A stretch of 64,000 bases of DNA from Verrucomicrobiia bacterium (GTDB lineage: Bacteria > Verrucomicrobiota > Verrucomicrobiia > Palsa-1439), in assembly GCA_052146795.1 (NCBI GenBank), contig JBKQMH010000106.1, positions 390 to 64,389 on the forward strand. Direction: 5' to 3'. Every line of letters begins with the position of its first letter. The stretch's first letter is position 1. Made by a program: the position numbers and the translations under genes. Of the stretch, positions 3,232-45,930 are shown in pieces. The notes beneath the pieces are model-generated. The model was not told the DNA's origin. It saw only the letters and a list, made by a program, of their open reading frames with translations, and made no database searches.

Positions 3232-4524
3232 TCACCTGCCGATGCTCTTGTAGACAAACCCCAACTCGGCCATCTTCTGCGGTTCGTACAGGTTGCGACC
3301 GTCGAATACAATGGGCTGGCTCATGACCGCGCGCAGTTTCTCCAGGTCGAGCTGACGGAATTCATCCCATTCGGTGCAGATGATCAGTCCGTCGGCTCCC
3401 GCCGCGGCGGCGTACGGACTCTCGCAAAACTCCACGCCCGGCAATACCTCGCGGGCCTTGTCCATCGCCTTGGGATCGTACGCGCGAATTTTTGCGCCTT
3501 CCTTCTGCAAGGTCCGGATGACCTCCAGCGACGGCGCGAGCCGCATATCATCCGTGTTCGGCTTGAACGCCAGCCCGAGGACGCCCAAGGTCTTGTCCTT
3601 CACAATCCACAATGTGTCGTGGACTTTCTTCAGGAAGTGCTGGATCTGGTCCGCATTGATTCGCTGCACTTCCTTGAGCAGGCGGAAATCGTAGCCCAGC
3701 GCTTCCGCGATGTGAACAAAGGCGCTCAGGTCCTTCGGGAAACACGAACCGCCATAGCCGAGACCCGCGTTGAGAAACGCCCGCCCGATGCGTTTGTCCA
3801 GGCCCATGCCGTTGACGACGTCGGAAATATTGGCGCCGCTGGCTTCGCAAATCACCGACAACGCATTGGCGTACGAAATTTTCAGGGCGAGAAATGAATT
3901 GCAGGCGTGCTTGATCAACTCCGCGCTGTTGATGTCCGTGACAATGATCGGCGCGTGGAACGGCGAATAAATCTCCTTCATTTTGGCGACGGGCCTCGGG
4001 CCGCCGACACCGATCACGATGCGATCCGGCTGCATGAGGTCCTGCACGGCGCAACCCTCCCGCAGGAACTCGGGATTGCTGACGACATCGAAGTCGACCT
4101 TGTGCTTGTTGTAGCGCTTGATGGTTTCCGCGACTTTCTCGCCCGTTTTGACCGGCACGGTGGATTTGTCCACAACAATCTTGTAGTCCGTCATGGTTCC
4201 GGCGATCTCCCGCGCCACCCGCTCAACAAAACTCATGTCCACCGAGCCGTCGGGATTTGGCGGCGTGGGCACGGCGATGAAGACCACCTCGGAATTCTTT
4301 ACCCCGTCGGCAATCTCGCCCGTAAAACGCAATCGTCCGGCAAGGACATTGCGTTTCACGATTTCCTCAAGGCCCGGCTCGTAAATGGGAATGCCGCCCG
4401 CCCGCAACACCTCCACCTTTTTCAAATCGTTATCCACGCAGATCACCTGATGGCCGACTTCGGCGAAACAAGCGCCGGTCACCAAACCCACATATCCCGT
4501 CCCCACAATGCTGATCTTCGGCAT
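3232..4524 (-). CDS. ugd: UDP-glucose 6-dehydrogenase
   Basis: GTGYVG, SNPEFLREG, GYGGSCFPKD, GLAFKPNTDDMR. Confidence 0.95.
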   Translation of the reverse strand: MPKISIVGTGYVGLVTGACFAEVGHQVICVDNDLKKVEVLRAGGIPIYEPGLEEIVKRNVLAGRLRFTGEIADGVKNSEVVFIAVPTPPNPDGSVDMSFVERVAREIAGTMTDYKIVVDKSTVPVKTGEKVAETIKRYNKHKVDFDVVSNPEFLREGCAVQDLMQPDRIVIGVGGPRPVAKMKEIYSPFHAPIIVTDINSAELIKHACNSFLALKISYANALSVICEASGANISDVVNGMGLDKRIGRAFLNAGLGYGGSCFPKDLSAFVHIAEALGYDFRLLKEVQRINADQIQHFLKKVHDTLWIVKDKTLGVLGLAFKPNTDDMRLAPSLEVIRTLQKEGAKIRAYDPKAMDKAREVLPGVEFCESPYAAAAGADGLIICTEWDEFRQLDLEKLRAVMSQPIVFDGRNLYEPQKMAELGFVYKSIGR

Positions 4525-4546
4525 ACTGTCGTTGTTTCCTCTCGAC

Positions 4547-7089
4547 TTAGTTCACCGCGATAACCGCTTCTGGATAGGCCTTCAACGTCACGCTGAAAAA
4601 CGCCGTCATCTCGCTGGGCGAGCTTCCCGCGATGTTCCGCTGACCAAGATACCGGAACCCGTAGGTAATGTACCAGTCGTGTGTTTCCTGACGCAAGGTG
4701 TACTCCTGCTCCTCCCATGTGCCATCCTGAAGGTCCACCCGCTCGTACAGGTGCGCCGTCCAGTGACGCGACAGTTTGTAGGCCCAGTCCACACTCACGA
4801 GGTTGCTGTCCCCCCGCAGGTATCTCGTGCCCACCCCCAGGGTCCAGCGGTCGGCATCGATCAGGCGCAACGCGGTGTTGAACTCGCGCATGATCCCGCC
4901 ATTGAGCTGATACCGCCCAAACGTGTCCAGCGAGAACCACCGGTACGGACGAAACTCCATGGTTCCAAAGAAATCGGAAAAATCAGTCTCGCCGGTCGTT
5001 TTCCCCACTTCATAATCCGTCCAGCCCGTTAGATCGACGAGATTCCACGCCTGATCGTCGCGCCGGGTTTGCAGCGTCTGGCGGAGCCCAAATCGCACCG
5101 TTTCCTCACCGGTAATCGAGTCGATCGTATTGTACGCCGGGAATTCCAGCGGCGAATAGCGTGTGACCGAGAGGCTGTCGCCCCCCAGCAGGGTCACATC
5201 GCGAACAGAATCGAATTGAAACAGGTCGTTGGTTGCGCGGTCGACATGCGGGATCCACTGGTAGTCCGCGAACGGTTGCAGGATATGCCGCAACCCGTCG
5301 ATGTGCAACCAGTCGCTGTGGACGTCGTCCCACTCACGCGAGATCTTGAAGGAAGTCTCCTCGCCCAGATCGTACACGACCCGTGTGACATTCCGCGTCT
5401 CCGGGGCATCGGATGGCGCCCGCGAATAGTAATCCCCGCGGATTCCCGCACGCGGAACCAGCGACAGCCAACCGCCCACCATTGACGGCACCACAATCTG
5501 ATGAAACGTGTCCGCCCGCACCGCGTTCCCGCGAAATCCGGGCTTTCCCCCGTGCCCACAATGTTGGTGGGGCCGGCCACGTCGTGGTATTGCCCGACGC
5601 TGCTTTCGCCTTCGTAGAAGAACGGGGTGTTGCCCAGGCGCGTTCGATCCACCGCCAGTTTCGCTTCCGGCAAACGTTCCACCTCGGTAAAAAACTTGTC
5701 GAACTGCGGCCGGACAAGAAACGACAGGGTATAGTCCGGCCCGGCCTTCGTGACGTCAGCGACCGAATAAGGTTAAATGTTGTGGTCGCACTCAGGGCGG
5801 AAATAATCGTGCATCATCTCGGCGTCACTCATTTTGTTGAGATCGACCGTGACCGTCACGTTATTGGTTAAATACTGCTTGTGCTGCCACTCAGCGCGAT
5901 AGCGGGCGGCGGAGTTGGTGACGAAGCCGGTGGCGGGAGCGTTGGTCACGCCGTGCGTCACGGTGGTCGCGCCGGGCTCGGACTTGTCCGGCTGCGAGTC
6001 GTCAATGAAGTAGCCGGTCAACAACCCCTGAGCTGCCGAACCGAACCGATATTTCAGGTCCGCGCCGGTGCCGAAGCCGCGTTCCGTCCGCTCATCGGCG
6101 TGAACCGTCAGGTCCATGTACTTGTTCGCTTTCCAGGTGAAACTGGACAGGATGAACGCTCCCCACAGCGAGTTGTCACCCACGCTCACCAGCATCGGCG
6201 GCATGTCTCCCTTCAGCGACCAGATCACGAGGGGCGACCAAAACACCGGTATGGTCCCCTGATGCACCGTGGCGTCGTGTAGTACGAGGCGATCTCCGGT
6301 CCACGTTTCGCCATGGTTCGCTTGCAGATAATAGCCAGGGTGCTCCAGATCGCTCGTGGTGACCGTACTACGCGCGAACACATAGTGGTTCGTGCCCACC
6401 TGCTCGAGGTTCTGGACATGCAGGTAGACGGGGTCAAAAAAACCGCTCGCATCGTCCGCTTTCAACCGCCGGGTGCCAAAGTTGTAGTACGCCGACGGCG
6501 CGATCCATTCCTGAACGCCCTGATTGATCCGGACATGGCCCTCGGCCCACGCTTCATTGGTCTGTTTGTTGAGCCGGACACGATCTGCCTGCAAGGTAAC
6601 GTCCTTGTCCTGCAGCACGACGTTCCCCTCCAAAATGGTCATCTTCGTGGTGTTGTCGAACGTCATCTTGTCGAAATGCATGATCGTTGGGCTCGCAGTC
6701 GAGACGGCTTCGTTCGTCGCAGGTTCCATAACCGCATTCGTCGCCGGCGCGACTGACGGGCTCGCGGTAGGCTCCGCAATCGAGTTGGTGGGTGGCTCAA
6801 CGACCATGTTCGTCGCGGCCTCGGCCGCCGAATTCGCCGCTGGTGCGATGGCAGCGCTGTTGGTTGACTCCGTGACGACATTGGTCGCCCGTCCGACAGT
6901 CGCATTCGTGGTTGTCTCGGTCGTGACATCCATCGGAGGACGGAACGACGGATTGGGGAGCGTCTCGGCTGCTGGATTGGTAGAAGGCTCAGGGGTCGCG
7001 TTGGTGGCGGCTGGCTCGTCGGCGCATACACTCATCGCCCAAGCCATCAACGCCGCTGCCAACCATAGGAATCGCCCCACTCTCCTCAT
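4547..7089 (-). pseudogene. lptD: LPS-assembly protein LptD, interrupted by an in-frame TAA (5773-5775) and a 1-base frameshift near 5528-5530 (possible assembly error)
   Basis: OstA-like N-domain (ILEGNVVLQDKDVTLQADRVRLN), beta-barrel strands with alternating hydrophobic residues; three ORF pieces join into about 847 aa. Confidence 0.75.
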
Positions 7090-15399: not shown

Positions 15400-17112
15400 C
15401 TACCCCTTCATGCCGGTGAGGGTGACGCCCTGGATGAAGTATTTCTGGGCGAAGAAGAAGATGATGATGACGGGGGTGGTCATGAGCAGCGAGCCGGCCA
15501 TCATCATGCCCATCGAACCGCGGGCGGAAACCTGGAACGCGTAGAGGCCGAGCGCGAGCGGATAGAGGCGCTGGTCCTGGAGGTAGATCAGCGGGCCCAT
15601 GAATTCGTTCCAAGTGCCCGTGAACGTGAAGATGGCGATGGCGGCCAGCGTGGGCTTGATCAACGGCAGCATGATGTGCCAGTACACCCGCCAGAAACCG
15701 CAGCCGTCGATTTTCGCGGCGTCCTCGAGATCGCGCGGGATGCCCTTGAGGAACTGGCGCAGCAGAAACACGTTGAATGCGCTCGCGAAAAAGCTGCCGA
15801 CCCACAGCGGGTAGAGCGTGTTGTACCAGCCCAGCGAACGCATGATGAGGAAGTACGGGATCATCGTCACCTGCCCCGGCACCATCATCGTCGCCAGCAT
15901 CAGCGCAAAACAGAAGTTGCGGCCCGGCCATTGCAGCCGCGCGAAGCTGTAGGCCACGAGCGAGCAACTCAGCAGCGTGCCGACCAAATTGAGCGTGACG
16001 AGGAACAGACTGGTGGCCACGTACCGCCAGAACGGCATGTTGTCGAACGACATGCGATAGTTGCGGCGCGCTTTCGCCCACCAAGCACCGAGCGCCGACC
16101 GGCGCGTCAACTCCAGCTCGACCTTGATCTTGTGCGGGTCGCTCTCGTACTGCGGCCCGCGCCCGACTTCGTCCAGCAGGATCCATGTCCGGACTTTGTT
16201 CGTCCTGTCGTCGGGTCCCCTTTCCTGCCACGTCCCGATGCCCCAGAGGAAATCGGCCAGGTCGTACGTATACATGGCCTTGTACCGCACGCCGAGTTTC
16301 TCGATGTACATCGTCAGACCGTGCCAGGAATCGTCATTGCGCAAATACAGCTGCAGTCGATAGAGATCTTCAATGGGAAAACTCGTCGTGAATGTCTGGC
16401 TCAACGTTAGCGTGTCGCCCGTCGAGAAATCGTAGTCCACATCCGCGTACGGCTCGCCCTCATCGCCGGTATTGACCTCCACGAGCTTCGTGGTCGCGGT
16501 CCCGCCGACCTGCCACGCAGCGGCGGCGTTCGTGCCGGAGACGAGTTGGTCCTCAACAATCGGCCCGAGTCGGCCGTAGGACCGCGCCCGGAGCTGGCCG
16601 AGCGACAAGTGACGGCGTATCTGCTGCCCGAGGATCTCGCGCACCATGACGGCGTCCACGCGTTTCGTCGCCTCGGCTTTCAAGGCTTCGACCGGGCCAT
16701 CCCAAACCGACGACGGCATCGTGTCGAGGAGCTTGTGGTAACAACCGCGCGCGGTTTGCTTGATCGCGACGTTTCGGTCAACGTCATCCGGCCAGATGCT
16801 CGGATCCAAGTTTTGCAAATCCGCTTCGATCGTGGCCAATAGCTCGTCCATGTGTTTGCCCGTCACGTCGTCGTAAAACCGCTGGTCGATGTACGGCGAT
16901 TTGACCTGCGGGATCGGGCGATGCGGCCAGAGATGGATTTTTTCGCCGAACATTTCGCGGTCGATCTTGATCGACGTGGTCGCCATCCACAGGAACGGCC
17001 ACGAGAAAATGATCGCGCCGACGATCAGCAGCGCGTAGATCCACGAGGCGCGGCTGAACTCCACGAGCCTGTAATACGCGTCACTGCGTTGGGTGGGAGG
17101 TGGTTCGCTCAT
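15400..17112 (-). CDS. Carbohydrate ABC transporter permease (MalG-like) with a large extracytoplasmic insertion
   Basis: PFLWMATTSIK, EAA loop DLEDAAKIDGCGFWR, FFFAQKYFIQGVTLTGMKG; about 300 aa inserted after TM1. Confidence 0.88.
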   Translation of the reverse strand: MSEPPPTQRSDAYYRLVEFSRASWIYALLIVGAIIFSWPFLWMATTSIKIDREMFGEKIHLWPHRPIPQVKSPYIDQRFYDDVTGKHMDELLATIEADLQNLDPSIWPDDVDRNVAIKQTARGCYHKLLDTMPSSVWDGPVEALKAEATKRVDAVMVREILGQQIRRHLSLGQLRARSYGRLGPIVEDQLVSGTNAAAAWQVGGTATTKLVEVNTGDEGEPYADVDYDFSTGDTLTLSQTFTTSFPIEDLYRLQLYLRNDDSWHGLTMYIEKLGVRYKAMYTYDLADFLWGIGTWQERGPDDRTNKVRTWILLDEVGRGPQYESDPHKIKVELELTRRSALGAWWAKARRNYRMSFDNMPFWRYVATSLFLVTLNLVGTLLSCSLVAYSFARLQWPGRNFCFALMLATMMVPGQVTMIPYFLIMRSLGWYNTLYPLWVGSFFASAFNVFLLRQFLKGIPRDLEDAAKIDGCGFWRVYWHIMLPLIKPTLAAIAIFTFTGTWNEFMGPLIYLQDQRLYPLALGLYAFQVSARGSMGMMMAGSLLMTTPVIIIFFFAQKYFIQGVTLTGMKG

Positions 17113-19649
17113 CCTTCCTCGTAAAACACCCAGCGCTTCTGCAGGTTCAATTGCACCACGGTCAGTCCGAACACGATGATAAACAGCACCCACGCCATCG
17201 CGGCGGCGTACCCCATCTGCAAGTAGCGAAACGCGCTATTGAACAGTTGATACGCGTAAAACAGGGTCGAGTTGACCGGGCCGCCCTGGGTCATAATGTA
17301 CGCGGGCGTGAAAATCTGAAAGACGCCGATGAATCCAATAATCAGGTTGAAGAAGATGTACGGCGACAACAGCGGGATCGTGATGTGGCGAAACTGTTGC
17401 CAGGTGCCCGCGCCGTCCAGGGATGCGGCTTCGTAGTAGGACTCGCTGATGCCTTTCAGTCCCGCGAGCCAGATAATCATGCCGCCGCCCGCGCCCCACA
17501 ACCCCATGAGAATCAGCGAGAGTTTGCTCGTGTGCTCGTCCTGCAACCAGTTCGGGCCGTGGATGCCGACGGACGCGAGTGCGTCGTTGAGCAGGCCGCT
17601 GCTCGGGTTGAAAATCCAGATCCACAGGATGCTGGAGGCCACGGCGGGCACGATGGACGGAAGATAAAAGAACGTCCGCCACACGGCAATGCCGCGGACT
17701 TTGAGGTTGAGCAGGAGCGCGATCCCGAGGCTCAAGGCCAGGCCCACCGGAATCCCGAGAACCATGTAGATGGTGTTCCACATCGATTTCCAGAACAGTT
17801 GGTCTTTGGTGAACGCCCAGAGATAGTTCTCCGCGCCCGTGAACCGCGCGGGGTTCAGGATGTCGTAGTGGCAAAAACTGATGATGATGGAAAACAGGAT
17901 GGGGCCGCCGGTGAACACGACGAACCCGATGATCCACGGGAGCGCGCATAGCCAGCCGCCTTTCCACTGCGAGCGGAAATAGCTGCTCTGCAAGCCTTCG
18001 AGGTCGCCCCCGCGGTTGGCCAGCGCTTTGCCGCCGACGACGCCCAGCGCGTTGCCCAGCCGCTGGCGCAGGTTCGCGTTTGTGTCCCAGTGATAAATTC
18101 CCACAGCGGCCGCGACAATCAGCACGGCGTACAGGACGAAAAACCAGTTCCAATTCACCACCGCGCCGGCAGGCGGGCTGAGGATACGGTCCAGATCGCG
18201 TTGCACGATCATCGTGGCCTCATCGAGCGCCTGCTGCGGCGACATCTTGTGGAAAATGGCTTTGTCGGTGGCAGTGAGCTGTTGGTTCCACATCAACTGT
18301 CCGACGGGCGTCACGGGCCGATACGGCTGGCCTTCGAGCAGGTCATTGAACACCTTCACAGCCGCGCCGATTCTCGGGTCCATCTGCGGGTCGTTAATGA
18401 CATACTTCTCGAAGAGGACTTGGTTAATCTTCTTGTTGGCGTTTTGCGTTGGAACAAAGATGCGGCCTTGCGAGGCGAGGTTGAGGCGGGTGGTGTCGGC
18501 GATGATTTCATTGGCGCGCTGGCTGGACAAGTACCGCAACAACTCCCACGCCGCCTCCTTGTGCCTGGCCGTGGACGGGATCGCATAACACCAGCCGCTG
18601 ACCCACGTGCACGTGTGGCTGCCGCTTTCGATCTGCCACTGCGGAATCGGCGGGCGGGCGATGCCCCAGTTTACGCTGCGGCCAAATTGCGCGATGGTAT
18701 CGGTGATCTGCCAGAAACCATCAATCTTCATCGCGAGCTTCCCGGTGATGAATGGATCAAGGTCGCCGGACTGTACCGTGGACTCGAACGCTTTGACGGC
18801 GGTCGCGCCGCCCATCGAATCGTACACCTTCGTCAGCCAGTCGAGGGCATCGACGATGCGCGGGTCGTTGAGCGTGCAGCGTTTGCCGTCGGCGCTCATG
18901 AAATGGCCGCCGTTCATCCACCCGTAGAGGTACAGCCAGGCGTTGCCCTGCGAGCCGTTCGACGCGCCCGGGGCGAACCCGAGGCGTTTGATGGCGCCGG
19001 AGGAATCGCGTTCGGTCAGCTTGACGGCCATGTCCTCCAGTTCGTCCCATGTCTTCGGCGGACGCGCCTCGCCTTTTTCGTCGACGAATCCGGCGCGTTT
19101 GAGGAGGTCTTTGTTGTAGAACAGGACGCGGTTATCCACTTTTTCAGGAACGCCGTACACGCCCTTCTTGCCGGTGACGGGATTGCGAAAGACGACCTCG
19201 TCCCAGCACGAGTCGAAATAATTCTCCGGCACGATCGCGTCGGGTCGACCGCTGGCGCGGTCCTTCTCAATGAGCGGCGTGATGTCCGCAAAAGCGCCAC
19301 GGGCGGCCCACTCCGTCACGGCGTAACGGTCGAATCGAATCACGTCGGGCGGCATTCCGCCGGCCACGCCCACGAGGAACCGTGTCGGGTCCGATATCGC
19401 GTCGCGGGATGCTTCCTGGCCGCTGATGACGTGGTAGATCGGCTTGGAGGGATCTTGTTCGTGGGCTTGACGGCTTTGGTCTTCGAAGTCGCGGATGGCG
19501 TCGCCTTGGGGGCCGGATACCGGGCCAAGGCCCATGATGCTGACTTCTACCACGCCCGCTTTGGGCGCTTGCTCCGAGCGCGACGGCGAAAGAAACCAAA
19601 GCGCGGTCAGTATCAACGCGGATAAGAGAGCCACTTTCCAGGTGCTCAT
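17109..19649 (-). CDS. Fusion of sugar solute-binding protein and MalF-like ABC permease
   Basis: SBP motifs (PPDVI, YGVP, LFYNKDLLKRAG, PKTWDEL, FITGKLAM) followed by TM domain with YYEAASLDGAGTWQQFRHITIPLLSP. Confidence 0.9.
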   Translation of the reverse strand: MSTWKVALLSALILTALWFLSPSRSEQAPKAGVVEVSIMGLGPVSGPQGDAIRDFEDQSRQAHEQDPSKPIYHVISGQEASRDAISDPTRFLVGVAGGMPPDVIRFDRYAVTEWAARGAFADITPLIEKDRASGRPDAIVPENYFDSCWDEVVFRNPVTGKKGVYGVPEKVDNRVLFYNKDLLKRAGFVDEKGEARPPKTWDELEDMAVKLTERDSSGAIKRLGFAPGASNGSQGNAWLYLYGWMNGGHFMSADGKRCTLNDPRIVDALDWLTKVYDSMGGATAVKAFESTVQSGDLDPFITGKLAMKIDGFWQITDTIAQFGRSVNWGIARPPIPQWQIESGSHTCTWVSGWCYAIPSTARHKEAAWELLRYLSSQRANEIIADTTRLNLASQGRIFVPTQNANKKINQVLFEKYVINDPQMDPRIGAAVKVFNDLLEGQPYRPVTPVGQLMWNQQLTATDKAIFHKMSPQQALDEATMIVQRDLDRILSPPAGAVVNWNWFFVLYAVLIVAAAVGIYHWDTNANLRQRLGNALGVVGGKALANRGGDLEGLQSSYFRSQWKGGWLCALPWIIGFVVFTGGPILFSIIISFCHYDILNPARFTGAENYLWAFTKDQLFWKSMWNTIYMVLGIPVGLALSLGIALLLNLKVRGIAVWRTFFYLPSIVPAVASSILWIWIFNPSSGLLNDALASVGIHGPNWLQDEHTSKLSLILMGLWGAGGGMIIWLAGLKGISESYYEAASLDGAGTWQQFRHITIPLLSPYIFFNLIIGFIGVFQIFTPAYIMTQGGPVNSTLFYAYQLFNSAFRYLQMGYAAAMAWVLFIIVFGLTVVQLNLQKRWVFYEEG

Positions 19650-21560: not shown

Positions 21561-22109
21561 TCAGTGTTGGGATTGGGGCGCGGTTTCTGGGACTGAATCC
21601 TTGCGGGTCAGTGCATTCTTGACGGAGTCGGGGAGTTTGTCCGCGTTGGCCAAGAGCAGACTGACCTGCCAGAGTTGATCGTCTTTGAGGGTGCTGTGGA
21701 AACCGGGCATGCCGGTCAGCCGAATCCCGTTCGCCACCTTCCAATAGGTCTCGCCCGGCTCGTCGTCGGTCACGCCCTTGCCGTGGAACAGTTGGGGAGG
21801 ACGCGGGTACATTCCTGCGGCGATGGCGGTCCTGGATGCGCCGGGCAGTCCGTGACACACCGCGCACTGCTCCTTGTACACCGCCGCGCCCGCCAGCAGG
21901 TTCGTCTCCGATGGTTCGATGGGGACGGTCTTCGGCATTTCTTTCTCGATGCGGGCGTCGAGGGCTTTATGCGCCAGCATCTTCTCGAACGGCATCGGCG
22001 GGGCCGACGTCGCCACGGGAGCGTAGCCGCCGGCGAAATAGAGGTAAACGCCAACGGGAATGAGCGAGAAGCCGATGATCACTCCGATCACAAATATAAA
22101 TTTCTTCAA
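21561..22109 (-). CDS. Membrane-anchored c-type cytochrome (mono-heme)
   Basis: CAVCHG heme motif, MYPRPPQL, GIRLTGMPGF; TTG start inferred. Confidence 0.85.
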   Translation of the reverse strand: MKKFIFVIGVIIGFSLIPVGVYLYFAGGYAPVATSAPPMPFEKMLAHKALDARIEKEMPKTVPIEPSETNLLAGAAVYKEQCAVCHGLPGASRTAIAAGMYPRPPQLFHGKGVTDDEPGETYWKVANGIRLTGMPGFHSTLKDDQLWQVSLLLANADKLPDSVKNALTRKDSVPETAPQSQH

Positions 22110-22272
22110 GAGGTTCCGCCTTTCTTGGTCTGACGATTTGACTCGTCCATGCTCCCACAGAGAAATGGGCAGTGCCAGAACAAATCCGGCGGCAAGGGCA
22201 GACCCCTTGGATTGCAAGGCGTTGACCTTTGCGAGCGTCTGAGGTAAGCTGTGGGTCAACTCGGAGGCAGTT

Positions 22273-22452
22273 ATGGCAAAAAGCATCAAGTGTCTGGACG
22301 TCGGCGTGGATTGCGACTTTGAAGCGCGCGCCGAGAATGAGGCGGAGTTGATGAAGAAGGTGGCGGAGCACGCGCGGACGGCGCATGGGATTACGCAAAT
22401 CCCTGCGGAGTTGGTGGCGAAGGTGAAGTCAGCCATCCGCGACGTGAAGTAG
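22273..22452 (+). CDS. DUF1059 small metal-binding protein (59 aa; below the ORF track cutoff)
   Basis: MAKSIKCLDVGVDCDFEARAENEAELMKKVAEHARTAHGITQIPAELVAKVKSAIRDVK; GGAGG RBS. Confidence 0.85.
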   Translation: MAKSIKCLDVGVDCDFEARAENEAELMKKVAEHARTAHGITQIPAELVAKVKSAIRDVK

Positions 22453-22618
22453 TTTTTTCCCCTGCGAGGGGCGACACCTCCTGGAGACTGTGAGCGTCAG
22501 CTACGCGCTCGGCCTGTGCGGTGTCACCTGGCGGGGGTGTCAGACTTGAAATTGCGAAAGTGGATTGGACTGAATGAAGCGAGTGGTCGCGGGGCGTACG
22601 TCATGGGAGAAATATCGG

Positions 22619-24088
22619 ATGAAGACCAGAATTTTTGTACTTAACCCTCTTGTTTGTGGCCTGGCCGCCGCGTTCGTGCTCGGCGCCGTATCCGCTAGTG
22701 CCGCAACGGATCCGTTTGTCCCCTTCCCCAACAATTCCACGCATACCGCCGCCGTCGTGGCGGCGGCCATTGCCAACGTGCCCACGAACGTGGGTGTTGT
22801 TTTCGATGCCAATGGCCAGACCAATGACATCCAGATCTGGAACTTCGGCAGCGGGATCTACACGGGAGTGGTCGACGTTTCCTCGACGCTGCAACGGATC
22901 CGCAACGGCCAATCCGTGGCGAATACCGAATCCGATGACGGCGGCTTCTTCAATTTCAATTCCCCCGAGTTTCCCAATATCCCGCGGATGGGAAACAATT
23001 ATTACATGGAGTTCATGGTCTGGCCGTTTCTGAACCTCGCCGCCGGCACCTACAACACCTCGAATGCGTATGGTTCGATGACGTATCCCGGGGCGATGCG
23101 GCTGCTGATCGGTCTCGGGGGCGAGGTGTATTTCACGGGCGACCACTACGGCGAGGACGGCCCGCAGCAGAACGCCTACTATTTGAACCCATTACCCGGC
23201 CAGGCCTTCGGGAATAGCTGGACCAACGCCGTCAGTGGCAAATGGGAAAATGCGACGAATTGGAACTTCAGCGTGGGCGCGCCATCGGCGGCGCCGTCGA
23301 ACTGCGACCCGGCGGACCTGATTACCAACGCCGGCAACAAGACGGTCACGCTCGATGCGGTCACAGCGTTCCGTAAGACAAACCTGCCGGTAGTCGTCAT
23401 CAACAACCTGGTTCTATCGGCGCCGAGCGGCTCGGTCAACACGGTTGTATTGACCGCCGGCTTCACGAACACGCTGCAGATCGCGTCCAGCTTCTCCCTT
23501 CTCAGCGGGGGTTCGCTCACCGTGGCCGGTGGCTCCATCACGGTGAACAACGGGCTCACAATCGATGGCGGAGCCCTCTTGAGCGGGGGCACCGTAACCG
23601 TGTACAGCAACCTCGTCGTCGGCGATTGTGGGGCGGGCGTGACGGGCACGGTGTCCGTCGCCGGCGGCAGCCTGTACGTCACCAACAGCACGCAGACCGG
23701 CGTGTTGAACGTGCAAAATGGCACGTTCACGATCAGCAGCGGAGTACTCCAGGCCGACAACTTGGTGATCACCAACCCTTGCGCGCAGTTCTTTCACACC
23801 GGCGGAACGCTGATTGTCAGCAACGTGGTTTTGAACCCGAACCTGTTCCAGGTTCTGTCCGTCGCCCCGCAAACCAATGGCATGCTGGTTACGTGGCTGA
23901 TGGGGCCCGGGGCGATCAACGCGCTGCAGGTCACCAGCGGGGATGCCAACGGCAATTACAACACAAACGGTTTCACCGACATTTTCGCGGTGACGAATAA
24001 TCCGAGTCTCGGAACAATCACTAGCTACCTTGATCTCGGCGCGACGAATGGCCCGACGCGGTATTACCGTGCGCGCCTGGGTCTGTAG
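22619..24088 (+). CDS. Secreted protein: RNase Sa/barnase-like domain, beta-rich passenger repeats and putative C-terminal sorting domain
   Basis: Signal peptide; STLQRIRNG...DGGFFN...YYMEF...MRLLIGLGGEVYFTGDHY; Gly/Thr/Asn-rich repeats; ends YLDLGATNGPTRYYRARL. Confidence 0.7.
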   Translation: MKTRIFVLNPLVCGLAAAFVLGAVSASAATDPFVPFPNNSTHTAAVVAAAIANVPTNVGVVFDANGQTNDIQIWNFGSGIYTGVVDVSSTLQRIRNGQSVANTESDDGGFFNFNSPEFPNIPRMGNNYYMEFMVWPFLNLAAGTYNTSNAYGSMTYPGAMRLLIGLGGEVYFTGDHYGEDGPQQNAYYLNPLPGQAFGNSWTNAVSGKWENATNWNFSVGAPSAAPSNCDPADLITNAGNKTVTLDAVTAFRKTNLPVVVINNLVLSAPSGSVNTVVLTAGFTNTLQIASSFSLLSGGSLTVAGGSITVNNGLTIDGGALLSGGTVTVYSNLVVGDCGAGVTGTVSVAGGSLYVTNSTQTGVLNVQNGTFTISSGVLQADNLVITNPCAQFFHTGGTLIVSNVVLNPNLFQVLSVAPQTNGMLVTWLMGPGAINALQVTSGDANGNYNTNGFTDIFAVTNNPSLGTITSYLDLGATNGPTRYYRARLGL

Positions 24089-24134: not shown

Positions 24135-24602
24135 TCAGGCTTGTTTACTTCGTTGCTGAAGCGCCTTGAGGTACTCCAGTGCCGAGCGTTTACGGGGATT
24201 GGGATCGGCCGCGGCTTCCTTGGCGGAAATCAACGTCGGCAGATCGAGAATAGCCACGTGCTCGCCACCAACGTTCATCAATTGGCGATGTGACGTTGCC
24301 TGTTCGTAAGTCCCGACCCCCATGACCTCGCTGAGGATATCGAGATCGCCATACTTCGTGTTCAGGGCGAAGACCGGCTGCCGCTGGAGCACAGAATCTG
24401 ACAGTGGCTCGTCCCAGCGCGCCCCGATTTCGTGAAGGGCGGCCAGTAATCGCTGACGATTCGCGGGTGTGTCCGCGTAAAGGATGTCGAGGTCGTACGT
24501 CTGCTCCGGGCAACCATACAGCGTGGCGGCGAATCCGCCAATCGTGATGTACTCGACCTTGTGGTGGTTCAGCGCCTCGATGATTTTTCGCGGATCGAAC
24601 AC
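24135..24602 (-). CDS. Nucleotidyltransferase-superfamily protein (minimal NTase type)
   Basis: YITIGGFAATLYG...TYDLDIL, GDLDIL, LISAKEAA. Confidence 0.75.
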   Translation of the reverse strand: MFDPRKIIEALNHHKVEYITIGGFAATLYGCPEQTYDLDILYADTPANRQRLLAALHEIGARWDEPLSDSVLQRQPVFALNTKYGDLDILSEVMGVGTYEQATSHRQLMNVGGEHVAILDLPTLISAKEAAADPNPRKRSALEYLKALQQRSKQA

Positions 24603-24751
24603 AGCAGGCGCTGCTCCTTGGCTTTGCGATCAATCTGGGGCCATTGGCCGCGGGCCTCGACTTCGCGGAGCGCGGCCATCAGGGTTTCGACGCGCTCGTC
24701 GGGCGTCTTGCGGAGGTTCCGCCGAATGGTTTCATCGAGGTGCAGGTCCAT
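24569..24751 (-). CDS. Small partner protein upstream of the NTase (antitoxin-like)
   Basis: MDLHLDETIRRNLRKTPDERVETLMAALREVEARG; overlaps the NTase start. Confidence 0.5.
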   Translation of the reverse strand: MDLHLDETIRRNLRKTPDERVETLMAALREVEARGQWPQIDRKAKEQRLLCSIREKSSRR

Positions 24752-24851
24752 ACTACAAAGTGTACCAGTTTGTGGGCGGAGACACAAGAACCCTGCTGCG
24801 TGACCACCGGGTGTAAGAGTATTGGGCAATGCCTGTTTGACTCCAACAGAA

Positions 24852-25380
24852 CGCAGGCTGAAGCCTGCGGCTACATGGGATGGAACCGGACGGACACGGC
24901 GGCAAGCGGGCTGGCTGCCAGACAAAACGGATGGCTACGGGGTCCGCTGCCCTACAAGGACAGCGGTCGAGCAACCCCGGACCGCGGTCGGCGCCCGCGG
25001 CTACAACGGCAACAGCGCAGACGGCGCTTGGCAAGCACGGCCACAACGGCGCGGCGCGATACCCGCCTGAGGTGGGCAAGCCTGAACGCTCTTCGATGCT
25101 CTAGGGTAAACCCTTCGACGCTGCTCAGGGCAGGCAGGCATCGCGCCCCACAATTCGGAGGGGATCGTTCCTCGCGCAGGAGGTGGTATCGTGTTTTGGA
25201 GTTGACAATCCATCCTAGTATGATATACGGTTGTGCATGAGTTGGTGTTTATCGGTATTGGGGTTGGTCTGAAACACGAAATGCTTGGGTAAGGCAGGAA
25301 ACGACAGAGATGCTTCGATGGATTCGACCCATTCGACGGGTTCGGCAGGCTCACCGCAGGCCCTTCGACAAGCTCGGGGC
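24852..25380. repeat. Mosaic of REP-like palindromes
   Basis: CGCAGGCTGAAGCCTGCG palindrome (24852-24869); CCCTTCGACGCTGCTCAGGGCAGG (25111) and CCCTTCGACAAGCTCGGGGC (25361). Confidence 0.65.
25202..25229 (+). promoter_or_regulatory. Sigma70-like promoter facing the repeat cluster
   Basis: TTGACA-16 nt-TATACG. Confidence 0.45.
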
Positions 25381-34413: not shown

Positions 34414-36294
34414 GTGATTCGCATCGCGTCACCTCCGTCCAAGCCCGTCGTGGTTTTCGACGGCGACTGTAATTTTTGCCGTCGGTGGGTTTCGCGCTGG
34501 CGCGAGGCCACCGGCAACCGCGTGGAATGCGTCCCTTTCCAAGACCCGACCGTAACGCAACGATTTCCCGAGTTACCGCGCCAGCAGTGCGAACAGTCAG
34601 TCCAACTGATCGATACGGACGGGTCAGTTTACTCAGCCGCGGAGGCTGTGTTCCGCGCACTGGCATTCTCTCCGTGCCATCGTTGGGCGCTATGGCTCTA
34701 TCAACACATCCCCGGTGTCGCGCCCGCCACGGAATCCTGTTACCGATCCGTCGCCAAACATCGCACCGGATTCTCGCTGTTCACACGCTTCTTGTGGGGA
34801 CAGCATGTCGAGCAACCCACGTATTATTTCAGCCGCTGGTTTTTCCTCCGGTTTCTCGGCCTGATTTACTTGTTTGCGTTCGTGTCGCTCTGGACGCAGG
34901 TCGATGGCCTCATTGGTAACCACGGCATCACGCCGGCCGCCCAATTCATGGAAATGGTGCGCCACTGGGCGGGCGAACACAATTATTGGGACGCTCACCT
35001 GATCGCGCCGACCCTCTGTTGGTTCAGCGCCAGCGACGCCTTCCTGCACTTCCTGTGCGCGGGCGGTACCGTCCTCTCGGTCCTCTTGATCTTCGGCGTC
35101 GCGCCCGCGCCCGCGTTGGTTTTGCTCTGGCTTTTCTACCTGTCGCTCTCGGTCGTCAGCGACGTTTTTCTCGGCTATCAGTGGGACGCGCTGTTGTTGG
35201 AAACCGGACTCCTTGCCATCTTCTTCGCGCCGCTGCAATTACGGCCGGGCCTCACCCGAGAAGCGCCGCCATCCCGCACGATGCTCTGGCTGCTGCGTTG
35301 GCTCCTCTTTCGACTGATGTTCGCCTCGGGCGTTGTCAAGCTCGCCGCGCACGACCTGACCTGGCGCGGCCTCACCGCCCTGACGTACCACTACGAAACC
35401 CAGCCGTTACCGACGTGGATCGGCTGGTACACGCACCAGTGTCCCGTGTGGTTCCAGAAATTCTCCTGCGGCATCATGTTCGCCATCGAGCTGGGCGCTC
35501 CCTTCCTGATCTTCGCGCCACGCCGTCCACGCTTCGTTGCCGCAGCCGCGATCACAACCCTGATGATCTTGATCGCCGCCACGGGGAATTACTGCTTCTT
35601 CAATCTCCTCACTGTCGCCCTCTGCATTCTGCTCCTCGACGATGCCGCGCTTCGGCGATTCGTCCCCACAGGGTGGCGGGAAGCGCACCCGAACGCCGAC
35701 CGTCTGCGCTGGTCGAACTGGATCATCGGGCCGCTGGCCACCGTCGTGATCATCGTGACCACGATGAACCTGCTCGGTGCGTTCCGCGAAGAAATCTCGT
35801 GGCCTGACCCGCTGGTGAGGCTGCATTCCCTGTTGTCCGCCACGCGAAGCTTCAATGGCTATGGCTTGTTCGCGTCGATGACCACAGCCCGTCCGGAGAT
35901 CATCATGGAAGGAAGTAACGACGGCCAGACGTGGTTACCCTACGAATTCAAATACAAACCCGGCGATCCCCTGAGACGACCCGCATTCGTGGAGCCATTC
36001 CAGCCCCGGCTCGATTGGCAAATGTGGTTCGAAGCCCTGCGCGTCGCGCGTCCGCGGACCGAGCCGAGTCCATGGTTCCTCAGCTTCTGCGAGAAGCTTC
36101 TTCGCGGTCAACCCGAGGTCCTGGCGCTCCTCAAGACAAACCCGTTTTCTGGTGCGCCTCCGCGCTATCTCCGCGCGACGGTCTACAGCTATCACTTCAC
36201 CGACCTCGCCACTCGACGCGCCACGGGCGCATGGTGGCGTCGGGAATTGTTGGGACCATACTGCCCGGTGCTGTCACTGCGGACAAATCAGTAG
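34414..36294 (+). CDS. DCC1-like thiol-disulfide oxidoreductase (DUF393) fused to lipase maturation factor family domain
   Basis: VFDGDCNFC; GYQWDALLLETG, HYETQPLPT, YQPRLDWQMWF-like PRLDWQMWF. Confidence 0.88.
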   Translation: MIRIASPPSKPVVVFDGDCNFCRRWVSRWREATGNRVECVPFQDPTVTQRFPELPRQQCEQSVQLIDTDGSVYSAAEAVFRALAFSPCHRWALWLYQHIPGVAPATESCYRSVAKHRTGFSLFTRFLWGQHVEQPTYYFSRWFFLRFLGLIYLFAFVSLWTQVDGLIGNHGITPAAQFMEMVRHWAGEHNYWDAHLIAPTLCWFSASDAFLHFLCAGGTVLSVLLIFGVAPAPALVLLWLFYLSLSVVSDVFLGYQWDALLLETGLLAIFFAPLQLRPGLTREAPPSRTMLWLLRWLLFRLMFASGVVKLAAHDLTWRGLTALTYHYETQPLPTWIGWYTHQCPVWFQKFSCGIMFAIELGAPFLIFAPRRPRFVAAAAITTLMILIAATGNYCFFNLLTVALCILLLDDAALRRFVPTGWREAHPNADRLRWSNWIIGPLATVVIIVTTMNLLGAFREEISWPDPLVRLHSLLSATRSFNGYGLFASMTTARPEIIMEGSNDGQTWLPYEFKYKPGDPLRRPAFVEPFQPRLDWQMWFEALRVARPRTEPSPWFLSFCEKLLRGQPEVLALLKTNPFSGAPPRYLRATVYSYHFTDLATRRATGAWWRRELLGPYCPVLSLRTNQ

Positions 36295-42784: not shown

Positions 42785-45571
42785 TCACTGCCTGAGGTCG
42801 ATGCGATAGAAGCGTGACGGTGCGTTTGTGGCGGCACCAGAGTCCGTATAGTTTGTGACTCCGAAACCGGACATGACGATCGTTGCGAGGTCGAAGAAGT
42901 TGCTGGAATAGCTGCCATCAAGTGCTTGAACGATGTTGGTTCCGGGGTTTCCGTTCCATGCAAGGATCACGTTCTTGCCAGTAAGTGTGATCGAGGTGAT
43001 TGCGAACGGCTGGAGCGAGACGCCAATGCGGTAGAATTTGTTCAGCTGCGTCGCATTCAGATCGGTAATAGTGGCTTGGGCGCCGTTGATCAGCGGGCCG
43101 GCGCAATCCGTAAGCGGCAGCCAGACGCCACTCACCAAATCTGTACAGAACTGCGGGGTGTAGACGCGGCCGGCAAGGACCGGGGTGAACTGGAAGCTGA
43201 ACTGTCCCGGTAGATTCTGGACGCTGGCGGGTTGGATGACAAATATGGACGTGGGATTGGTTGGGTTCAGCCCGGCGGTGTATTTGAAAAGGTTGTTTTG
43301 GCCGGTGCCGTCGGCATCGACGTTCATGAGCGACTGCACGCAATTAGTGCAGTTGAAATACTGCGAGAGCCACGCCTGAAACTGTGACGCCTCGGTGGGG
43401 CTCAAGATGGTGATGTAGCTGGCCCACGTGGCGGTGCTGGATCCACCGAGGCCGCTGACGATCTCCATCACAGTGTAATTGCCCGCAGCGGCGTAGGTGT
43501 GTTGCATACCGGGTGTCGTGGCGTTGGTGGTGGCGCCGTCGCCGAAACTCCAGAACCAGTTGGTGATGTTGCCGGTCGATGCGTCAACAAAAGTCACGGT
43601 CAGCGGAGCCACGCCGCGGACCGGGGCAGCGGAGAACCTGGCCAACGGCGGCGGCAGCAGCACGGTGATGTAGTTGGCCCTCGTGGCGGCGCTGGTGCTG
43701 ACCCCGCCGTAACCACTGACAACCAGCGTTACCGTGTAGGTGCCGGCGGCGTAGGTGTGGGTCACGCCGGTGGCGGTGACGTTGGTCGCGCTGCCGTCCC
43801 CAAAGATCCAGTGCCGATTGGTGATGCCGCCGGTCGAGGTGTCGGTGAAGGTCACGGTCAGCGGGACCACGCCGTTCGTCGGTGAAGCCGTGAAACTGGC
43901 CGTGGGAGGCGGCGGCGGCAAAGTCGAAGTCTCGATGATCCGTGCACCCGCCCAGTCTGCATGATCATTGGTATTCCCCGGCACGCCATTCGATATAATC
44001 AAGTCCAACTGGGACGCGCCACTGATGTCCAAGTCTATCGTCTTGGTTGGCATGCCGCTGGTCATTGTCCCGATGTCGTAAATGCATATCCCGTCAACTG
44101 CGACCTGGAAAACGACAACGCCGCCGTTTGCCTCGTCGTCCAAACCGATGTCGGACTGAAACATCGCGGATACACCCCCGATGTTGTATCTTATGTCGGA
44201 GTAGGCATGACATCCCAGACCCTTGGTGTAAGTTACTCCGTTTATCGTAATCGTAGTCCCATCGCCACCGTCGCATTCGCCGTTGCTCATGTCTCTTTGT
44301 GCATTGCCGAAACCGTTCGTTTGGTAGATCCAGTAGAGGTCGCTTACGTAATTCGTGCCGATGCGCAGTGGCCATAGCGGCGGTGATGGGCGGGACATTG
44401 GCGTGCCGATGATCTTCAGCAGGGCGACTCCGTGCGAGGGAACATTGGTTGAAAAACTGTCGGTAAATGTTCCGACATTGGTGTGTGCCCACAAGTCGCG
44501 CACCGTGGCGTTGCCGGGTTGGAGCGAAATGTCGCTCCAGTTCGCCGTCATGTTGGTACTGACTGCGCTCCTGTTGAAAAGGGCTACCGCCTTGGTTGTC
44601 CCATCCGTACCGACGGGCTTACACCATACTTCCACAGTTCCACCCGTACTGAGAATTGAAGAGACGCGGACGCCCTGCACTCCGTTCGAGTCCTGATCTA
44701 TCGCAATCGCTTCCGCATTGGTCAATATGTTCAGCGTCGTTTGCGATATGCTCCGCAGGTCAGTGCTGACAATCAGCGGCGCCGCCACGATACACCACAT
44801 TGCAAACTGGGACTGGTCCTCCGTGGCCGACATGCTGTCGTTGACATTACCGGCGCTCAACATATCCGGGTCGTTCCAATTGCCGGGGCCGGCGGCGGCG
44901 TACCAAGGGTTGTTCGCATCGAGGTTGCCGATCAGCGTCGACCATGTATTTTGGGAATCGGTGGTTGTACGCCACTGGTTAGCATAGGTCGGCAGCCATG
45001 GGTAGAATACGCAGGTACAAGCATTAAGCACTATTGGTCGTCCACAACCCAACAATGCGTTGCCCATCGCGACGTAATACGGTTCCGTGACACTCGAACC
45101 GTCTATGCAGTACCCGGCAGAATCATCCTTCAGGTAGTCAACTCCCCAAGACGCGAACGTGTTGGCATCGGTGACTTCGTTGCTAAGTGAGCATAATGAG
45201 AATTCATTTGTGTACGAGCCGATACATCTGTAGATACCGAACTTTAATCCATCAGCATGAACATAGTTCGCCAATGATTGTATGCCATCGGGAAAGTTGT
45301 TTGTGTTCACAACGAGAACGCCGTTTGACCGGTAGCCCCAACAGTCGTCCAGGTTGATATACTGATAGCCAGCGGCCTTCATGCCGTTGGTCGCCATCGC
45401 GTCCGCGTTCTGCTTGACGATGGTTTCGTTAACGCCACAATAAAACGCAAGCCAGCCGTTCCAACCCATCGGCGGGGTGAGCGCCAAACCGTTCGTCAAT
45501 GCGGAGGCAGTGAAGTTTGGAACGAGTGCCCACAAAAGAAACACACAGCCCTGAAAAGTACGATGCCCCAT
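42785..45571 (-). CDS. Secreted GH27 alpha-galactosidase with NPCBM, two PKD domains and tandem C-terminal domains
   Basis: LALTPPMGWN, LDDCW, YLKDD, WRTTTD, NDPDML; NPCBM YTKGLGCHA; PKD GVVPLTVTFTDTS...WIFGDG. Confidence 0.9.
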   Translation of the reverse strand: MGHRTFQGCVFLLWALVPNFTASALTNGLALTPPMGWNGWLAFYCGVNETIVKQNADAMATNGMKAAGYQYINLDDCWGYRSNGVLVVNTNNFPDGIQSLANYVHADGLKFGIYRCIGSYTNEFSLCSLSNEVTDANTFASWGVDYLKDDSAGYCIDGSSVTEPYYVAMGNALLGCGRPIVLNACTCVFYPWLPTYANQWRTTTDSQNTWSTLIGNLDANNPWYAAAGPGNWNDPDMLSAGNVNDSMSATEDQSQFAMWCIVAAPLIVSTDLRSISQTTLNILTNAEAIAIDQDSNGVQGVRVSSILSTGGTVEVWCKPVGTDGTTKAVALFNRSAVSTNMTANWSDISLQPGNATVRDLWAHTNVGTFTDSFSTNVPSHGVALLKIIGTPMSRPSPPLWPLRIGTNYVSDLYWIYQTNGFGNAQRDMSNGECDGGDGTTITINGVTYTKGLGCHAYSDIRYNIGGVSAMFQSDIGLDDEANGGVVVFQVAVDGICIYDIGTMTSGMPTKTIDLDISGASQLDLIISNGVPGNTNDHADWAGARIIETSTLPPPPPTASFTASPTNGVVPLTVTFTDTSTGGITNRHWIFGDGSATNVTATGVTHTYAAGTYTVTLVVSGYGGVSTSAATRANYITVLLPPPLARFSAAPVRGVAPLTVTFVDASTGNITNWFWSFGDGATTNATTPGMQHTYAAAGNYTVMEIVSGLGGSSTATWASYITILSPTEASQFQAWLSQYFNCTNCVQSLMNVDADGTGQNNLFKYTAGLNPTNPTSIFVIQPASVQNLPGQFSFQFTPVLAGRVYTPQFCTDLVSGVWLPLTDCAGPLINGAQATITDLNATQLNKFYRIGVSLQPFAITSITLTGKNVILAWNGNPGTNIVQALDGSYSSNFFDLATIVMSGFGVTNYTDSGAATNAPSRFYRIDLRQ

Positions 45572-45930
45572 AGCGGAAACAGTTGTTGACCGACATTTCC
45601 CATATGACATACGCCCCGCAACCATCGCGGGCCGTTCAGATCGGATTCCGTGCTTGCCGCGTCCGGCTGGAAACCCACTAAACTCGCACTGCAATTAAAG
45701 CACAAAGGCTCGCGGTTGTCTATCGTGGAAACCACTAAATTCCGTTGTCTTGTAAAATCCTACCCGCAGGTGGGGGTCAGACTGGGCTGCCTAACCTTAA
45801 GCCGTACGCTCAGGAACTGATCTCAACATACGTGCCGCGTCAGCCGGATACGTCCGGCCGGATATGCCTTGTCGCATTCCTCGTGGTTTTAAGCGCGGTA
45901 TGGTGCCGTGATCTGCCACGTTAAGGATTT

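Follow-up and report, generated by a model that had tools for sequence, protein, structure and literature searches.

We analysed a window of 64,000 nucleotides from a Verrucomicrobiia bacterium (GenBank assembly GCA_052146795.1, contig JBKQMH010000106.1, positions 390 to 64,389), and the subject of this report is the protein-coding gene at positions 22619-24088 of the window. The N-terminal domain of its product is, with hardly any doubt, homologous to the barnase/RNase Sa family of ribonucleases. Barnase-type RNases are small, free, guanyl-preferring enzymes that are secreted and paired with an intracellular inhibitor. The protein found here is a divergent, barstar-less and modular branch of this textbook family, not surprising in kind, and is reasonably likely to be an exported, barstar-independent endoribonuclease of altered specificity that probably scavenges environmental RNA.

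Homology of the N-terminal domain to barnase and RNase Sa

A first-pass annotation of the window, made from the sequence alone, had noticed a resemblance to RNase Sa in the strings STLQRIRNG, DGGFFN, YYMEF, YPGAMRLLIG and GEVYFTGDHY, which were located at about 22883-23149, and a WTNAVSGKWENATNW motif further on (Table 1). The resemblance was invisible from single pairwise comparison and became firm by hhalign, an iterated profile and the fold. The whole protein gave no match to the family model PF00545 even at E-values up to 10, falling below its gathering threshold of 24 bits, and neither Pfam nor NCBIfam returned a ribonuclease for it; scoring below the Pfam threshold, it and the majority of its relatives carry the label of hypothetical proteins. 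BLASTP against RNase Sa (a query sequence identical to 1GMP chain A) aligned only the 22 residues of GAMRLLIGLG-GEVYFTGDHYG, with a single-pair E of 5e-4, and phmmer against PDB reached RNase Sa2 at E 0.7. For scale, RNase Sa itself finds barnase only at E 0.05-0.1 in a comparable search, so that low pairwise scores are normal in this family. The matches to Herpes_gp350, a hemophore, ATP synthase beta and a TonB receptor at E 0.011 that appeared in the direct searches were dismissed as noise.

The search of a large protein collection detected 212 homologues of the window protein, and their N-terminal domains formed a tight clade with 55-89% identity. A one-round profile of this clade, which still included the tail columns, found RNase Sa2 in PDB at a non-significant E of 5.5. 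When the profile was limited to the domain, 493 proteins were retrieved at E <=1e-3 from 1.84 billion representative proteins. PF00545 matched all ten of the intermediates sampled, with library-wide E-values of 1e-31 to 5e-9, and nine of them exceeded the gathering score. The iterated profile including the intermediates detected RNase Sa2, Sa3 and Sa in PDB at E 7e-24 to 1e-21 (6.9e-24 for Sa2), and also barnase and binase at about 3e-4 to 1e-3. Profile-profile comparison by hhalign of the clade against RNase Sa, barnase, binase and the PF00545-positive small RNases gave a probability of 99.5% and an E of 8.5e-23 over 114 columns. A graded series led from RNase Sa through the small PF00545 proteins P0220 and P0159, and then P0141 and P0137, to the window protein.

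The AlphaFold2 model of the N-terminal domain had a mean predicted local distance difference test score (pLDDT) of 92.2 and a predicted template modelling score of 0.89, and showed the alpha+beta fold of the family, with an N-terminal helix on an antiparallel sheet. Foldseek comparison with PDB returned the microbial RNase fold, whose absence would have refuted the reading of the first-pass annotation, the top 34 matches all being RNase Sa, Sa2, Sa3, barnase or binase (probability up to 0.96). The better-superposed entries of RNase Sa and Sa2 had template modelling scores (TM-scores) of 0.55-0.62 when normalised by the target, a root-mean-square deviation of about 3.2 A and 24-28% identity.

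The absence of a Pfam match, the E of 0.7 with phmmer and the E of 5.5 with the single-round profile might be taken to mean that short motifs happen to match those of RNase Sa by chance. The E-values of the hhalign alignment and the iterated profile, the exclusive retrieval of the RNase family by the fold and the graded intermediates refute this explanation, and we regard its probability as negligible. The link to ribonucleases is not wholly new, given the labels "ribonuclease", "guanyl-specific ribonuclease Sa" and "ribonuclease domain-containing protein" that automated annotation pipelines had attached to a few relatives (P0029, P0053, P0079, P0110); the closest named relatives are annotated as hypothetical proteins.

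Active-site residues and comparison with known ribonucleases

Invariance was assessed in the clade alignments and in an alignment of 46 sequences that were 24-67% identical to the window domain, while the canonical enzymes were kept as a separate set. Only 11 columns were invariant across the 46 sequences, including Glu131, Arg161, Asp175, His176 and Tyr177. The first-pass annotation had read the catalytic Glu, the His and one Arg as kept and the other Arg as replaced by Pro, and this agreed with our alignments, in which Glu54, Arg69 and His85 of RNase Sa corresponded to Glu131, Arg161 and His176, and Arg65 to Pro157 (Table 1).

RNase Sa, Sa2 and Sa3 of Streptomyces aureofaciens (PF00545; 1RGG, 1PYL and 1MGR) are alike in fold to the window domain, and both kinds of protein have a signal peptide. 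The likeness extends to a collinear set of motifs, namely TLxxI in helix 1, DG, YYxE[FY], G-x-x-R-hydrophobic-G and YYTGDHY. In contrast to RNase Sa, which consists of 96 residues, the window domain has 167 residues and is fused to about 290 further residues, and the FQNRE loop and Arg65 of RNase Sa are represented by FNFNSPE and Pro157. Barnase, binase and balifase of Bacillus share the superfamily and the catalytic Glu, Arg and His with the window domain, and all of them are extracellular. Barnase is a free protein, about 110 residues long, and possesses Lys27 and Arg83, neither of which occurs in the window domain. Barstar is encoded in the Bacillus genome, in the same operon in the case of balifase, whereas it was found neither in the window nor in 24 loci of the clade.

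The Pro at the position of Arg65 is not unique to this clade, as it is usual in a large PF00545-positive subfamily characterised by GPGPQR...YYTxDHY (hereafter the GPGPQR subfamily). The members P0141, P0159, P0199 and P0220 share with the window domain this Pro, the Arg of helix 1 (TLxRI) and the hairpin V-x-N-F-G-x-x-V-Y-x-G, and the closest ones, P0137-P0142, already possess the N-terminal helix and a shorter form of the insert. The GPGPQR proteins keep the F-x-N-R-E loop, are single-domain proteins of 130-250 residues and pass Pfam, whereas the window clade lacks the loop motif and carries tails. RNase T1 contains P73-G-A-D-R77, which is like Y-P-G-A-M-R161 of the window protein (sequence checked in 1BU4), and its Arg77 is taken to be the counterpart of Arg69 in RNase Sa, following published structural alignments. 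RNase T1 is active with Pro four residues before the catalytic Arg, so that Pro157 should be tolerable in the superfamily. As both the GPGPQR subfamily (Pro) and RNase T1 (P73) lack it, the second active-site Arg is not universal in the family. RNase T1 showed no significant sequence match to the window domain, and its active-site residues His40 and Tyr38 correspond to Gly and Asp of the window domain in our own alignment. Judged from its conservation, Arg93 in helix 1 is a candidate substitute for the lost second Arg.

The rebuilt guanine-recognition loop, absent from the first-pass annotation, is a more telling deviation than Pro157. Asn39, which is invariant in the canonical set, was aligned with Phe, and the invariant Glu of the clade (E117) was two residues out of register. 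An RNase Sa-like specificity is consequently not to be assumed. The stretch WPFLNLAAGTYNTSNAYGSMTY between the strands bearing the catalytic Glu and Arg corresponds to a gap in the canonical RNases and occurs in shorter versions in the intermediates P0137-P0142. The domain is in addition longer at its C-terminal end, and about 40 residues forming a strand and a helix extend it at the N-terminus. Met residues are located beside the catalytic Glu (YYMEF) and the catalytic Arg (GAMR), which suggests that the back face of the sheet may now be covered by the added elements.

Table 1. Positions of the gene, its encoded features and its flanking genes in the window
Feature	Position	Strand	Remarks
Whole gene	22619..24088	+	489 codons and stop; the open reading frame itself opens at 22574
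Sec-type signal peptide MKTRIFVLNPLVCGLAAAFVLGAVSASA	22619..22702	+	Cleavage predicted after ASA, mature start ATDP
N-terminal RNase-like domain, residues 29-195 (167 residues)	22703..23203	+	Core homologous to barnase/RNase Sa at ~22754-23155
Arg93, helix 1 (TLQ-R-IR)	22895..22897	+	Invariant in the clade and the Pro-containing subfamily; Leu in RNase Sa
Base-recognition loop FNFNSPE	22949..22969	+	Replaces F37-Q-N-R-E41 of RNase Sa; register ambiguous
Glu131	23009..23011	+	Equivalent to the general base Glu54 (RNase Sa)/Glu73 (barnase) in hmmsearch and hhalign alignments
22-residue stretch WPFLNLAAGTYNTSNAYGSMTY, Glu strand to Arg strand	23021..23086	+	~15 residues longer than in RNase Sa
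Pro157	23087..23089	+	At the position of Arg65 (RNase Sa)/Arg83 (barnase); Pro invariant in the clade
Arg161	23099..23101	+	Equivalent to Arg69 (RNase Sa)/Arg87 (barnase); invariant in all alignments
His176-Tyr177, TGDHY motif	23144..23149	+	Equivalent to the general acid His85 and Tyr86 of RNase Sa; invariant
Linker, residues 196-256, with WTNAVSGKWENATNW motif	23219..23263 (motif)	+	Low model confidence
Gly/Thr/Asn/Val-rich all-beta region, residues 257-405	23387..23833	+	pLDDT 75-90, all strands
84-residue C-terminal domain, end RYYRARLGL	23834..24085	+	Fn3-like beta-sandwich
Upstream neighbour, cytochrome c	21561-22436	-	Divergent
Downstream neighbour, 155-residue nucleotidyltransferase-like open reading frame	24135-24602	-	Convergent; weak PF10706 match, E 0.009; DLDILY motif

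Export, architecture and genomic surroundings

The first-pass annotation placed the start of the gene at the ATG at 22619, which is likely the initiation codon and fits better than the upstream ATG, judging from a Shine-Dalgarno-like GGGAG about 9 nucleotides before it, the typical Sec signal peptide that follows and the N-termini (MKTKIF...) of the orthologues of 489-493 residues. The 45 nucleotides at 22574-22618 lead the open reading frame (ORF), and the protein-collection entry for the contig (P0001, 504 residues) starts at the upstream ATG. The signal peptide, read from the sequence by eye, has a basic n-region, a hydrophobic core and an A-x-A cleavage motif with no twin-arginine, and MKTRIFVLNPLVCGLAAAFVLGAVSASA would thus be a substrate of signal peptidase I. 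The secretion claimed in the first-pass annotation agreed with this peptide, and export across the inner membrane is well supported. A lipoprotein signal was rejected, as the single Cys varies among the orthologues and the residues preceding it are unlike a lipobox. The ratio of nonsynonymous to synonymous substitution rates in the RNase-like domain was 0.24-0.27 against four orthologous loci, and the domain was 80-89% identical among the orthologues. Over 17 full-length homologues the RNase domain had a mean identity of 84%, compared with 71% in the beta region and 73% in the tail. The gene is genuinely coding, and the strongest constraint within the protein acts on its head domain.

The full-length AlphaFold2 model was of moderate quality (pLDDT 67.6) and was used only for residues 257-489, which were all-beta with pLDDT of 75-90; Foldseek of this full-length model returned nothing below E 0.05. 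The pLDDT was below 50 at residues 191-234 and the linker was not placed. The WTNAVSGKWENATNW motif in the linker also opens the beta region of a homologue that has no RNase domain (P0120). Residues 257-405 are probably a beta-helix-like stalk according to the model, for which Foldseek gave weak matches only, to beta-helix proteins (tailspikes, HpmA and SepA, E >=0.06) and also to Ig-like folds, and neither Pfam nor NCBIfam had a match to this region.

The C-terminal domain, described by the first-pass annotation as shared, indeed recurs in about 100 homologues and on another protein encoded in the window at 42785-45694 (-) (tblastn E 0.002). The latter is an exported enzyme of 969 residues, a GH27 alpha-galactosidase (Melibiase_2 and Melibiase_C) with NPCBM and two PKD domains, and it ends with two Fn3-like copies terminating in "...FYRI", the last of which matches the tail of the RNase-like protein. 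One further match to the tail in the window, ending at ~45986 (-), was weak (tblastn E 0.12). Because the tail is also present on the GH27 enzyme of the same window, it marks exported enzymes of this organism, and it looks like a lineage-specific tag of such enzymes. Against PDB the profile of the domain found a weak Fn3 match (3MPC, E 0.14) only, and as it had no match in NCBIfam or Pfam, its identity with a known sorting signal was rejected.

The first-pass annotation had further called the protein probably surface-sorted, which found no support, as the window protein contains no PEP-CTERM, conserved lipobox, C-terminal transmembrane segment or match to a curated family. Its C-terminus (...GPTRYYRARLGL) has neither a PEP motif nor a hydrophobic segment and gave no match to PF07589; nor did Pfam or NCBIfam detect an autotransporter barrel or Por_Secre_tail in the whole protein, or NCBIfam in 22 tails. 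The same RNase-like head is present in PEP-CTERM-sorted proteins, since PEP-CTERM replaces the Fn3-like tail in 10 of the 98 clade members in hand (at least 98 exist; P0104, P0110, P0113 and P0118 are examples), some of them with dockerin, whereas the window protein has the Fn3-like end instead. Anchoring of the window protein at the surface would be an analogy with these relatives.

The RNase-like domain was N-terminal, directly after the signal peptide, in 97 of the 98 members. The "...YYRxRL" domain formed the end in 75 of them, and the remainder, apart from the PEP-CTERM proteins, were short or truncated. The commonest form has about 280 residues (head and tail), the form in the window has about 490 with the beta region in between, and the longest reach 1,529. 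Some genomes contained two or three paralogues, as seen in SPRUCE 575 (L006, L015 and L024, of 651, 1,529 and 327 residues with differing tails), bog_1451 (L023 and L026) and binchicken_co162_501 (L009 and L019). The head is thus shuffled onto different carriers within one genome. A set of large proteins of 600-1,756 residues (P0155, P0158, P0160, P0163, P0165, P0169, P0172, P0175 and P0177-P0182) has the RNase-like domain internally or at the N-terminus together with the motif SPGPMRILLATGGDCYFTGDHY. A simple pattern found no YY-x-E motif for the catalytic Glu in this P0155-P0182 set; P0167 has YYEF. They may represent an additional modular branch, or the Glu may be missing from them.

Metagenomes of soil, peat and bog contained the sequence as well as close relatives of it. 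Matches in genomes came from metagenome-assembled genomes (MAGs) of Verrucomicrobiia from SPRUCE, Stordalen-type bog and palsa and a Danish soil series, with single matches in bins of Chthoniobacter, Tepidisphaeraceae, Candidatus Acidoferrum and Bryobacterales. The domains in the Candidatus Acidoferrum MAG (L018) and the Bryobacterales MAG (L020) were 66-67% identical to that of the window, and nearly all the others belonged to Verrucomicrobiia. Their presence in Acidobacteriota is due either to horizontal transfer among peat bacteria that live together or to mis-binning.

The first-pass annotation had seen no barstar-like gene next to the RNase-like gene, and this was extended to the whole window and to 24 loci of the window clade. 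A tblastn search with barstar gave no match in the 64-kb window, and the barstar sequence and a three-sequence barstar profile detected none in the window, translated in all six frames, or in the 24 loci; the search covered 27 loci fetched from species-representative genomes, as ORFs near each match and as six-frame translations, with the rest of the window's genome outside it. A barstar-like ORF was found directly downstream of the RNase gene in L031 (Fimbriimonadaceae MAG, 1018-1613, E 5e-8) and in L028 (Pirellulaceae MAG, 4001-4827, E 4e-5), both E-values being against the barstar of B. amyloliquefaciens, indicating that the search was able to detect barstar where present. In L028 the barstar-like portion is the C-terminal half of a longer ORF. 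These two loci are relatives from the genome scan, and their proteins were not classified into the GPGPQR subfamily. A third match, in a Streptomyces locus, was weak.

All-against-all comparison of the neighbouring ORFs revealed no conserved partner, only the gene's own shadow ORFs and the synteny of four near-identical loci, and precomputed Pfam annotation of two further contexts gave no partner gene either. As its flanks are divergent upstream and convergent downstream (Table 1), the gene looks monocistronic, and it looks to lie outside any island. An ORF of 118 residues without family match at 24569-24925 (-) overlaps the start of the downstream neighbour on the same strand; together they could form a small module of two genes, unless the second ORF is spurious. 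Other neighbours encode a response regulator, a C45-type peptidase, alanine racemase, MazG and an ABC sugar-transport protein, and the wider window is ordinary chromosome with genes for PGI, ThiC and an M48 peptidase. The ORF at 17109-19649 (-), of 846 residues with SBP_bac_1 and BPD_transp_1, would be a fused binding protein and permease. At 34414-36294 (+), a protein of 626 residues combines a DCC1-like thiol-disulfide oxidoreductase with LMF1 and LMF1_C (lipase maturation factor), a family better known from eukaryotes.

Function and alternative explanations

We consider activity of the domain as an RNase to be probable from the conserved catalytic residues, and the scavenging role is less certain than the activity. 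In the proposed mechanism, Glu131 would act as the base on the 2'-OH and His176 as the acid that protonates the 5' leaving group, with Arg161, along with Tyr177, holding the phosphate. RNA would undergo metal-independent transphosphorylation to give 2',3'-cyclic and then 3'-phosphate ends; the metal-independent chemistry of the family has been summarised (PMC5021464). The strict classical preference for guanine is unlikely to be retained because the loop is rebuilt, and has probably been lost. A flexible linker would join the head to a beta-helix-like stalk and the Fn3-like tail, and the protein would reside outside the cytoplasm, whether in the periplasm, at the outer membrane or beyond it. 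As a signal peptide is present and an inhibitor gene absent, self-protection may be provided by export, that of the unfolded chain replacing barstar. In acidic peat and soil the enzyme would degrade environmental RNA as a source of phosphorus, nitrogen or carbon, alongside other exported hydrolases bearing the same tail. The restriction of the clade to metagenomes of peat, bog and soil is in line with such a role. The N1/T1 RNases of Bacillus are secreted enzymes; phosphate starvation induces binase and balifase, and a role in phosphate scavenging has been proposed for these two (PMC5021464). Our literature search turned up no account of barnase-type RNases in tethered or modular form, nor of barnase combined with PEP-CTERM.

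Several observations weigh against the proposal of an exported scavenging RNase. PF00545 missed 41 of 43 clade members and reached the other two at E 0.08 or weaker. The Foldseek E-values were marginal (0.04-0.3) and the query-normalised TM-scores were 0.25-0.37, both of which are explained by about 60 query residues, in the N-terminal extension and the insert, that have no counterpart in the 96-residue enzymes. Pro157 replaces the second phosphate-binding Arg, and the base-recognition loop does not preserve Asn39, Arg40 and Glu41 in register. PDB contains no member of the clade or of the Pro-containing subfamily, and a search for RNA-sequencing runs that contain the gene listed none. No phosphatase, nucleotidase or Pho-type gene lies nearby. 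A periplasmic location is plausible in a diderm such as a Verrucomicrobium, and any site beyond the periplasm is putative.

The deviations in the active site could also mean that the fold was kept while the protein ceased to be an ordinary RNase, the head on the stalk being a lectin-like or adhesin-like domain that binds nucleotides or RNA, or an enzyme for another phosphodiester. FNFNSPE in place of FQNRE, the loss of Asn39 that is otherwise invariant in the canonical enzymes, Pro at the second Arg, the Met residues next to the catalytic Glu and Arg and the large added elements are all consistent with such a change, and the combination of head, beta-helix stalk and Fn3-like tail weakly resembles adhesins. 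The invariance of Glu131, Arg161, His176 and Tyr177 in the clade and the distant relatives would however be unexpected if catalysis had been abandoned, and the Pro at the second Arg site is common to a PF00545-positive subfamily with the canonical F-x-N-R-E loop. We regard this explanation as rather unlikely. A bolder form of the RNase proposal appears unlikely as well. It would take the protein as a barstar-independent branch of the fold in which the rebuilt loop provides a new specificity or phosphodiester substrate, the Arg of helix 1 replaces the lost Arg, the head sits on the tip of the stalk, and the "...YYRxRL" tail is an undescribed export or anchoring signal interchangeable with PEP-CTERM.

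The barnase fold is widely used by RNase toxins, and beta-helix stalks are found in proteins of two-partner secretion and contact-dependent inhibition (CDI), to which the weak HpmA and SepA matches would correspond; one relative (L001) is located ~4.6 kb from a gene for a ShlB/POTRA-type transporter. An RNase secreted or delivered by contact against competing bacteria or eukaryotes is nevertheless quite improbable. Polymorphic toxins of the CDI, Rhs and type VI and type VII secretion systems have a variable C-terminal tip and an immunity gene, whereas the domain here is N-terminal in all but one of the members rather than a C-terminal tip, and is the most conserved part of the protein, not the polymorphic one. 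The 24 loci contained no immunity or barstar gene and no conserved neighbour, and the divergent and convergent genes that flank it in the window are of unrelated function. Defence at the surface against RNA phages or other extracellular RNA threats is highly improbable, being suggested by the exported location and the RNase homology with nothing specific to it, while the neighbours are housekeeping genes with neither a defence island nor a phage context and a surface site is putative. RNA-phage defence and antagonism, both raised in the first-pass annotation, were thus left unsupported by the N-terminal position of the domain, its high identity among the orthologues and the lack of a conserved neighbour or immunity gene.

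The exported RNase proposed here extends a well-known family and overturns no existing knowledge. The clade places the catalytic core at the head of modular exported proteins, in a few Planctomycetota and Acidobacteriota bins besides Verrucomicrobiia, and the C-terminal domain that many of them share could serve as a sorting tag specific to the lineage. An active RNase-like domain would offer a natural experiment in the re-engineering of specificity and host self-protection on the barnase scaffold, and in that case these proteins would represent an unrecognised class of extracellular RNA-degrading enzymes in nutrient-poor peat that bears on the turnover of organic phosphorus and nitrogen.

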